A stretch of 64,000 bases of DNA. Origin: Escherichia coli. GTDB lineage: Bacteria; Pseudomonadota; Gammaproteobacteria; Enterobacterales; Enterobacteriaceae. The stretch lies in the NCBI RefSeq assembly GCF_965641715.1, contig NZ_OZ282453.1. The stretch is one strand, 5' to 3'. Made by a program: the position numbers. Positions 45,001-48,000 of this stretch are shown piece by piece; position 1 is the stretch's first letter; the number at the start of each line of letters is the position of its first letter.

Positions 45001-48000
45001 GGCAGGCAACACTGAAGGCACAACTTCATCAATTAAATCCTGCACGGAGAACAGCACCGTCTCACTTTTCCAGCTATCGTCCGCAAGCATGTTCGCTAAC
45101 TGTATTTCATCGACCAGCCGCACCAGCACATCTGCCTGATTCGCCAGTTGTTTGCTTTCCGGGGCGTTGAGTTTAGCCGCGCTCTCCGCCAGGGACTGTG
45201 CAGGTTCTTTCAGCGCATCGCCAATGTTTTTCATAAAGGTCATCCGCCCCTGCTGGTTTTTCTCATACAGACGCTGCGCCTGCTTGAGTTTCTTGTTTAC
45301 CAGCACTTCGCGATCCTGATCGCGAATAATGAAAATTTGTGTGCGCGGCGCGACCTGGCTGCGGAACATGCGGATCTCATACAGCTCGTTATTGATCGTC
45401 GCCTGAATAATCCCCTGATGCTGTTCCGCCATGGTGGTGATGTTTTGCAGATTCAAATGCGGCAGCAAATGATCGGCAATTTTGTTACTTATGACAGTGC
45501 GGTTCGATTCCTGATCGTGAACCAGCAGGCCGAGCGGCAGCAGTGAGACTATCTCTTCATTGATTGCCCGTAAAATGCGCAATTCGTTATTGACCGCCGT
45601 GTTGGGTAGACTTTCTGTACTGCGACTGGAGAAATGGCGGAATGTGGTATAGCCAAATAACGCCAGCGCCAGCAAACCGATGTTCAGCAGCAGTGGCAGC
45701 AGAATGTTTTGCAACGTATCCAGCAATAAGGTGCCATAAGGAACCTGCCAGACCAGTCGCATATCGGTAGAGTTGAGTGCCGAGGAGATTTCAATCTTCG
45801 TACTGTTAAAGTGGATACTGACGCTATCCGTCCCTTCTTTCTCATTATCATTGTCTCCCGTTGCCGTCGCGTCTGGCTCAAGGCGGAAACTGTCCAGCGG
45901 CATACCCGGTGGGATCAAATCATTAATCGGCAGATCAAAAGCCACGACCGTTGCCAGATGTCCCGGCTGGTTAAAGGTGGTACGCAAGGTAAAGTAATGA
46001 CCGTTCTGCCAGGCCAGGCGGCGCATGTTAGAAAAACTTTCGCGTTCATCGAGGGCGTTGGCCTGTTGCAACATCTCTGCACGACGTGAATCAACAATGT
46101 CACTGACGGTCGATTCTTTAAATCCGGAGGTGAGATCTTTGAGGGGCAGGGTTGAGATCAGCACCAGACTGTTATCCTGACCATTCAGGTAATACATTGA
46201 CCACGGTACATTTTCTGCGCCCCACAATGTGTCCAGATAGGTGGACATCCGTTGAGTCATCTCAAGCGTTGAGTTGTCGTGAGAGCCAAAGATTAACGCT
46301 TCCGTTTTGCGGCGCGGTTTTTCCAGATAGTAGACATCTTGTTTCAGGCGCGTCTCTTGTAAACCTTCGCCGGAGGAGGGGGAGGTCGTCGCGGCAATGT
46401 TGTCGTAGATCTGCCAGGTCACGTAACGCCAGGTATCGACGCGCTTTTGGATAGCGTGGGTAATGTCGACAATCTGGTAACTTTTATCTTTCAGCCAGGC
46501 GTTAACGGCGCTTTGTACCATTACACCCATCGTCACCAGTAACACAATGATCAACAGTAAAAAGAAGCGGGTAATGCTCCCCGGTAGGAGTGAAAAGCGG
46601 GTCGTGGCCGTTGTCTCTTTCTGACGCATTCGTGTTTATGACCTGTTAAAACTTCGCGAAGTGATAGGGCAGTATAAAGGGTACAGTGTGAAATTCCAGA
46701 CTCTTACCTGATTGATGATTCTCTATTCTCCTGTGATATTTATCATCCTGTATGGGGGGAAATAGATGTACAAGCGCCATTTTGCTGTACAAATAACCTA
46801 CGAAAAGCCCAACGAAATTAATTGCAAATAAACGAAAATTGCTGGAAATTATGCTGATGTTAATTATTTGTGAAATAGTTAACAAGCGTTATAGTTTTTC
46901 TGTGGTAGCACAGAATAATGAAAAGTGTGTAAAGAAGGGTAAAAAAAACCGGATGCGAGGCATCCGGTTGAAATAGGGGTAAACAGACATTCAGAAATGA
47001 ATGACGGTAATAAATAAAGTTAATGATGATAGCGGGAGTTATTCTAGTTGCGAGTGAAGGTTTTGTTTTGACATTCAGTGCTGTCAAATACTTAAGAATA
47101 AGTTATTGATTTTAACCTTGAATTATTATTGCTTGATGTTAGGTGCTTATTTCGCCATTCCGCAATAATCTTAAAAAGTTCCCTTGAATTTACATTTTGA
47201 AACATCTATAGCGATAAATGAAACATCTTAAAAGTTTTAGTATCATATTCGTGTTGGATTATTCTGCATTTTTGGGGAGAATGGACTTGCCGACTGATTA
47301 ATGAGGGTTAATCAGTATGCAGTGGCATAAAAAAGCAAATAAAGGCATATAACAGAGGGTTAATAACATGAAAGTTAAAGTACTGTCCCTCCTGGTCCCA
47401 GCTCTGCTGGTAGCAGGCGCAGCAAACGCTGCTGAAGTTTACAACAAAGACGGCAACAAATTAGATCTGTACGGTAAAGTAGACGGCCTGCACTATTTCT
47501 CTGACGACAAGTCTGTAGATGGCGACCAGACCTACATGCGTCTTGGCTTCAAAGGTGAAACTCAGGTTACTGACCAGCTGACCGGTTACGGCCAGTGGGA
47601 ATATCAGATCCAGGGCAACAGCGCTGAAAACGAAAACAACTCCTGGACCCGTGTGGCATTCGCAGGTCTGAAATTCCAGGATGTAGGTTCTTTCGACTAC
47701 GGTCGTAACTACGGCGTAGTTTACGACGTAACTTCCTGGACCGACGTACTGCCAGAATTCGGTGGCGACACTTACGGTTCTGACAACTTCATGCAGCAGC
47801 GTGGTAACGGCTTCGCAACCTACCGTAGCACCGACTTCTTTGGTCTGGTTGACGGTCTGAACTTCGCTGTTCAGTATCAGGGCAAAAACGGTAGCCCGGA
47901 AGGTGAAGGCATGACCAACAACGGTCGTGAAGCTCTGCGTCAGAACGGTGACGGCGTTGGCGGTTCTATTACTTATGATTACGAAGGCTTCGGTATCGGT

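Follow-up and report, generated by a model that had tools for sequence, protein, structure and literature searches.

The stretch of Escherichia coli DNA analyzed here (64,000 nt from contig NZ_OZ282453.1 of RefSeq assembly GCF_965641715.1; hereafter, the window) carries micF and ompC in what is almost certainly the canonical enterobacterial porin-switch arrangement. The initial annotation had described micF and ompC as a conserved unit of divergent genes separated by OmpR boxes, and RNA family membership, predicted fold, pairing with the target, gene order, and promoter identity all support this description. Here we observed identity to the known system in sequence and structure, complementarity to ompF, conservation across genomes, and covariation within the RNA. 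All features defining MicF (RF00033) that can be assessed in a sequence, namely family, seed, terminator, and genomic position, were found, and none of the data contradict the reading of the locus as a canonical porin switch. The system is already known and is present here in its ordinary state. The classic OmpR/MicF porin switch is preserved intact in the sequence of this genome, which matters little in itself; the only new information is descriptive and consists of two alleles, C82 in MicF and A at position −102 relative to the ompC start, together with their frequencies.

MicF, a 93-nt RNA whose gene diverges from ompC, base-pairs with ompF at its ribosome-binding site and start codon. Its activators are EnvZ-OmpR, acting at high osmolarity, and SoxS, and the intergenic region between micF and ompC is bound by H-NS (PMC5745476). 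In K-12, MicF is known as a ~93-nt, Hfq-dependent repressor of OmpF (PMC5745476). Phosphorylated OmpR (OmpR-P) activates the K-12 ompC promoter in vitro, and MicF mediates OmpR's post-transcriptional control over ompF (PMC5175337). In the window, ompC on the plus strand and micF on the minus strand would be transcribed divergently from starts located approximately 255 bp apart. Phosphorylated OmpR would bind three tandem 20-bp sites, C1 to C3, centered some 70 bp upstream of the start of ompC, and would from there activate ompC at high osmolarity. Transcription of micF would depend on this upstream region as well, in combination with a mar/sox/rob box beside its own promoter. The unstructured 33 nt at the 5' end of MicF are predicted to pair with ompF mRNA across the Shine-Dalgarno sequence and the AUG. 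This pairing would block translation, such that OmpF would go down as OmpC goes up, and a 10-bp GC-rich hairpin followed by a U-run would terminate MicF. Binding of OmpR, SoxS, MarA, and Rob, the positions of the promoters, and the regulatory output are expected to be as in established K-12 work. The coordinates of all features are given in Table 1.

Table 1. Features of the micF–ompC locus and of neighboring DNA, in window coordinates
Feature	Position	Strand	Description
rcsD	43957..46629	−	890-aa ORF; lies on the micF strand, downstream of micF; annotated under this name in K-12 and the closest E. coli genomes
micF	46941..47033	−	5' end at 47033, 3' U-tail ends at 46941; RF00033 match
MicF Rho-independent terminator hairpin	46947..46969	−	Terminator scan, inverted repeat I3 (100% complementarity), covariation
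K-12 difference, MicF nt 82	46952	−	Plus strand G here, A in K-12; RNA C82 versus U82
MicF nt 1–33, 5' antisense (seed)	47001..47033	−	Unpaired in the minimum-free-energy structure; complementary to ompF
mar/sox/rob-box-like site	47066..47084	−	−33 to −51 from the micF start; one mismatch to AYNGCACNNWNNRYYAAAY; same as K-12
K-12 difference upstream of C1	47187	+	K-12 has C, the window A; 2 bp upstream of C1, about −102 from the ompC start
OmpR box C1, predicted	47189..47208	+	TTTACATTTTGAAACATCTA; same as K-12; half-sites 6/7 and 5/7 versus GTTACAT
OmpR box C2, predicted	47209..47229	+	TAGCGATAAATGAAACATCTT; same as K-12; GAAACAT half-site from 47220
OmpR box C3, predicted	47230..47248	+	AAAAGTTTTAGTATCATAT; same as K-12; GTATCAT half-site from 47240
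ompC core promoter, putative	47254..47282	+	−35 TTGGAT at 47254–47259, 17-bp spacer, −10 GAGAAT at 47277–47282
Stem-loop opening the ompC 5' untranslated leader	47288..47321	+	Inverted repeat I2, 14-nt arms, 86% complementary; same as K-12
ompC coding sequence	47368..48489	+	ORF, 373 aa
ompC terminator-like hairpin	48508..48527	+	Terminator scan: 8-bp stem, then T-run
ada	49730-50794		In block 49700-55900
alkB	50794-51444		In block 49700-55900
yojI	51520-53163		In block 49700-55900
mqo	53381-55027		In block 49700-55900
eco	55403-55891		In block 49700-55900
naRNA4-like cluster	20050-20113		Intergenic, further upstream
naRNA4-like cluster	43090-43280		rcsC/rcsB gap
naRNA4-like cluster	55068-55376		mqo/eco gap

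An Rfam scan of the whole window identified MicF (RF00033) on the minus strand at 47034→46941 with a score of 116.8 bits compared to a gathering score of 79 (E = 9.5e-18), and the match spans model positions 1–94 of 94, that is, the full length of the model. We assign micF to the minus strand from 47033 to 46941, and both its length of 93 nt and its 5' end agree with the K-12 annotation (b4439). The family match and the annotated K-12 length thus bear out the earlier placement of a 93-nt MicF at these coordinates on the minus strand. Folding as MicF, which the initial annotation had named as a point on which it could fail, was also found: the covariance model is matched, and the predicted fold has an energy of −21.4 kcal/mol compared to −7.95 ± 2.48 kcal/mol for shuffled sequences (z = −5.42), with none of 200 shuffles equaling it. 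As in the Rfam consensus, the 5' third is unpaired, and the fold further contains a small internal hairpin and a terminator hairpin of 10 bp. The MicF locus is confirmed as real, beyond chance. In comparison to RF00033 across the Enterobacteriaceae, the window shares the full model, the conserved 5' 35 nt, the internal 6-bp hairpin, and the terminator hairpin. The loop of the first hairpin reads UUUC in the window, as it does in other Escherichia, whereas the majority of the family has GUUC. A permissive Rfam scan of positions 46400–48700 detected no RNA beyond MicF, and its one other match was at chance level (E = 0.53).

The MicF seed (nt 1–33) is the same as in K-12. Paired with K-12 ompF mRNA from −17 to +11, it forms 25 base pairs with a predicted energy of −27.1 kcal/mol, and the duplex covers both GAGGG and the AUG. 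None of 2000 composition-preserving shuffles of the seed reached this energy; among 2000 random 33-mers drawn from the window, 30 matched it. Because the window is GC-richer, the composition-matched shuffle is the relevant control for the seed duplex. The ompF gene is absent from the 64-kb window, and the pairing was computed against the K-12 leader; the region of ompF from −20 to +15 has the same sequence in 5395 of 5426 E. coli genomes. Complementarity to ompF, the lack of which the initial annotation would have taken as evidence against its own reading, is thus present with respect to K-12 and to E. coli in general. A second calculation, in which full-length MicF was paired with 150 nt of the ompF leader using RNAduplex, was set aside: the resulting duplex (−39.4 kcal/mol) was over-extended, and shuffled sequences equaled it (mean −32, minimum −48), such that the result is uninformative.

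For comparisons across species, we collected 120 enterobacterial MicF loci by a pattern scan of one genome per species. Across 102 enterobacterial sequences, nt 30–35 of MicF are invariant and nt 29 is nearly so. Within the 5' 35 nt that are conserved in the MicF family, just nt 29–35 lie outside the search pattern, and conservation of nt 1–28 is fixed by that pattern except at its free positions 14, 15, and 18, which are invariant or nearly so.

The initial annotation had quoted ccggatgcgaggcatccgg as the stem of the MicF terminator and had left undecided whether it is the same as in K-12. The quoted stem corresponds to positions 46949–46967 and, together with the flanking AA/TT, gives a stem of 10 bp and a loop of 3 nt, with the T-run next. 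It is a perfect 10-nt inverted repeat that is also called by a simple terminator scan, and the plus-strand A run at 46941–46948 overlaps the base of the stem in part. The suggested folding of the terminator recovered stem, loop, and U-run. As to identity with K-12, the answer is no: in the terminator stem the K-12 plus strand reads ccgAatgcgaggcatccgg, which corresponds to U at MicF nt 82, and this single base differs. The alignment with K-12 micF that had been proposed as a check is otherwise without differences, with 92 of 93 bases identical.

The change at nt 82 replaces the G68·U82 wobble of K-12 by a G68–C82 pair and leaves the predicted structure the same. The terminator hairpin with C82 has a predicted energy of −15.8 kcal/mol compared to −12.9 kcal/mol with U82, which makes it 2.9 kcal/mol more stable. 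We counted MicF alleles in 5426 complete E. coli genomes, 5374 of which hold the MicF-containing 98-mer. The version of the window (C82) was found as an exact match in 3043 of these 5374 genomes and the K-12 version (U82) in 2013, with other versions accounting for 318. C82 is the majority allele in E. coli, and K-12 carries a minority form. The terminator of the window also matches the RF00033 consensus at nt 82.

Covariation was counted on the MicF structure of the window in an alignment of 100 distinct MicF sequences with those of the window and K-12. Over 101 distinct enterobacterial sequences, the pair at nt 68/82 is GC in 50, AU in 32, and GU in 19, with no unpaired case. No other pair of the terminator covaries as much, and G·U is the intermediate state. 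Pairing in the terminator helix extends to 97% of cells, and for 6 of its 10 stem pairs both sides vary among these 101 sequences. For the whole MicF structure, 98.2% of cells are paired and 7 pairs change on both sides compared to a shuffle mean of 2.4, and controls in which the pairing was slid along the alignment reached only 20–38% paired. We considered whether C82 might lead to appreciably more MicF than in K-12, by making termination more effective or the RNA longer-lived, and thereby strengthen the repression of ompF, as the greater predicted stability of its hairpin would suggest. We give this idea practically no credence, given that C82 is held by most E. coli (3043 versus 2013) and is the commonest state across genera, and that nt 68/82 swaps freely among G·U, G-C, and A-U without ever being unpaired, a hallmark of neutral drift that preserves structure. 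It is K-12, if anything, that is the variant at this position. C82 is a natural polymorphism and represents the commoner and more stable terminator allele. The K-12 reference strain thus has a minority G·U MicF terminator, whereas most E. coli and Enterobacteriaceae have a Watson-Crick pair, and nt 68/82 provides a natural example of G-C ↔ G·U ↔ A-U covariation involving no new biology.

The alignment of positions 46630–47400 with K-12 MG1655 is gap-free over 771 columns. Between 46941 and 47367 there are two differences only, at 46952 and 47187. From 47188 to 47400 the window is the same as K-12, and this segment comprises C1–C3, the putative −35 and −10 hexamers, the ompC leader, and the first 33 coding bases. 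The corresponding K-12 MG1655 locus, micF (b4439)–ompC (b2215) at NC_000913.3 2,311,646–2,313,176, is like the window in gene order, orientation, and its 93-nt MicF, and the boxes, the core promoter, the leader, and the mar-box-like site are the same in both. By contrast, K-12 has U82 in MicF, C at −102, nine substitutions in the spacer between rcsD and micF, and an OmpC of 367 aa. The 738-bp rcsD–ompC intergenic region contains 11 substitutions relative to K-12, and 9 of these lie in the rcsD–micF spacer (46732–46855). This spacer is more polymorphic than the micF–ompC half of the region, and no RNA family match was found in it.

The boxes between the two genes are arranged as three tandem sites of about 20 bp with a half-site phasing of about 10 bp, and they would extend from about −100 to −41 relative to the ompC start. 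The initial annotation had placed a cluster of OmpR boxes at 47189..47251; the boxes are real, but the end at 47251 is 3 nt too far, the cluster ending at about 47248. The exact boundaries of C2 are taken as in the literature on C1–C3. Half-sites of the form GWWWCAT occur at 47199, 47220, and 47240, and the plus strand of the 64 kb holds just 24 in all. When all six half-sites were scored in phase, position 47189 was among the top 2 to 5 of 127,880 positions, with individual scores of 6, 5, 0, 5, 2, and 5 out of 7. The sequence TGAAACATCT is repeated exactly at a spacing of 21 bp, with one copy in C1 and one in C2. Boxes C1–C3 fit the published OmpR motif GTTACATTTTGTTACAT (PMC5438342), and an oligonucleotide used for OmpR binding to C1, TCCCTTGCATTTACATTTTGAAACATCTATAGCGAT, contains box C1 (PMC2586830). 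C1–C3 are predicted OmpR sites to which OmpR-P would bind as in established K-12 work.

The second difference from K-12 within the micF–ompC unit, at 47187, falls in the flank of these boxes. A 98-mer spanning 47160–47257 was found as an exact match to the window version in 186 of 5371 E. coli genomes (~3.5%) and to the K-12 version in 2705 of 5371, and ~46% of genomes match neither. A 98-mer spanning the boxes and the core promoter (47189–47286) has an exact match in 4517 of 5371 genomes, so most of the variation probably falls within the 29 bp that flank C1 upstream. Position 47187 and its neighbors read A, C, or T across Escherichia, Salmonella, Citrobacter, and Klebsiella, and C1 stays conserved. 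The rarity of the window version could be taken to mean that A at 47187, at −102 and at the edge of the C1 footprint, alters the affinity or cooperativity of OmpR-P and has retuned the osmolarity set-point in this lineage, for ompC and, by way of the upstream region that the two genes share, for micF, and the position does fall within the 36-bp oligonucleotide used as 'C1 DNA' (PMC2586830). We consider such a retuning very unlikely, however, because 47187 belongs neither to the 20-bp box nor to the conserved half-site motif, the position varies freely among these four genera while the box is conserved, and the many genomes carrying neither version of the flanking 98-mer are set against the 4517 in which 47189–47286 is exact. 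The simplest reading of A at 47187 is that of a neutral flank polymorphism.

A scan for consensus sigma-70 promoters called neither the micF promoter nor the ompC promoter, as would be expected for weak, activator-dependent promoters, and the hexamers were placed by homology. The putative −35 and −10 hexamers of ompC were positioned after the K-12 ompC P1 promoter, and transcription of ompC would then start near 47287–47290. Upstream of micF, the mar/sox/rob-box-like site is presumably the site for MarA, SoxS, and Rob known from established work. The marbox pattern AYNGCACNNWNNRYYAAAYN has 3 matches in the window compared to 1.29 expected, which is not significant on the pattern alone. In the ompC leader, GAGGGTTAAT occurs twice, at 47303–47312 in the 5' stem-loop and at 47355–47364 in the Shine-Dalgarno region, and both copies are as in K-12. 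Between them, at approximately 47336–47353, lies AATAAAGGCATATAAC, which we take to be the pairing site of the small RNA MicC.

The ompC ORF lies on the plus strand, divergent from micF, as the initial annotation had it, and the intergenic region ends at 47367, directly in front of the ompC ATG. The distance from the micF start to this ATG is 335 nt, and an ompC-like protein start (MK[VLR]K[VL]LS) is located divergently from micF at 322–342 nt in 94 of the 112 species loci with enough upstream DNA. The order of genes, rcsD–micF / ompC–apbE(ftp)–ada followed by alkB, is as in K-12 and other E. coli. OmpC of the window, at 373 aa compared to 367 aa in K-12, is 92% identical to the K-12 protein with three insertions or deletions. 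The protein matches exactly the sequence that public sources call OMPC_SHIFL or Shigella flexneri OmpC, and it is present on at least 1000 contigs; the likeness to Shigella flexneri concerns the allele of this neighboring gene only. Such an allele would fit an origin of the window in Shigella as well as in an E. coli that shares it. The lineage with A at 47187 also has this Shigella flexneri-type OmpC allele.

The DNA surrounding the locus is divergent in places. For window positions 36000–60000, the best match among complete E. coli genomes is at most 97.6% identical. A block of 6.2 kb of core genes at 49700-55900, downstream of ompC, reaches no more than 94.5% identity with any one of 5426 complete E. 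coli genomes. Relative to the closest overall genome, ada is 90.3% and mqo 94.3% identical, compared to 99.5–99.8% for the flanking genes rcsD, ompC, and napF. Substitutions at the first, second, and third codon positions number 12/11/80 in ada and 9/2/83 in mqo, with neither gaps nor stops. Given that third-position substitutions dominate and that gaps and stops are absent, the genes of this block are natural divergent alleles. An origin as artificial or non-E. coli sequence was considered and rejected, as substitutions are mainly at third codon positions, there are no stops, and 9 kb of the window (45730–54794) have a 100% identical counterpart in the public draft assembly GCA_021646925.1. 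Representatives of other Escherichia species are further from the block (92.2%, 91.4%, and 87.9%), and the exact Ada protein is on record on 34 contigs only. From its sequence, the block looks like an import by recombination from an unsampled Escherichia lineage. Finally, three REP/BIME-type repeat clusters in the window score as Rfam naRNA4 (RF02564) with 61.9–77.5 bits compared to a threshold of 59.5.
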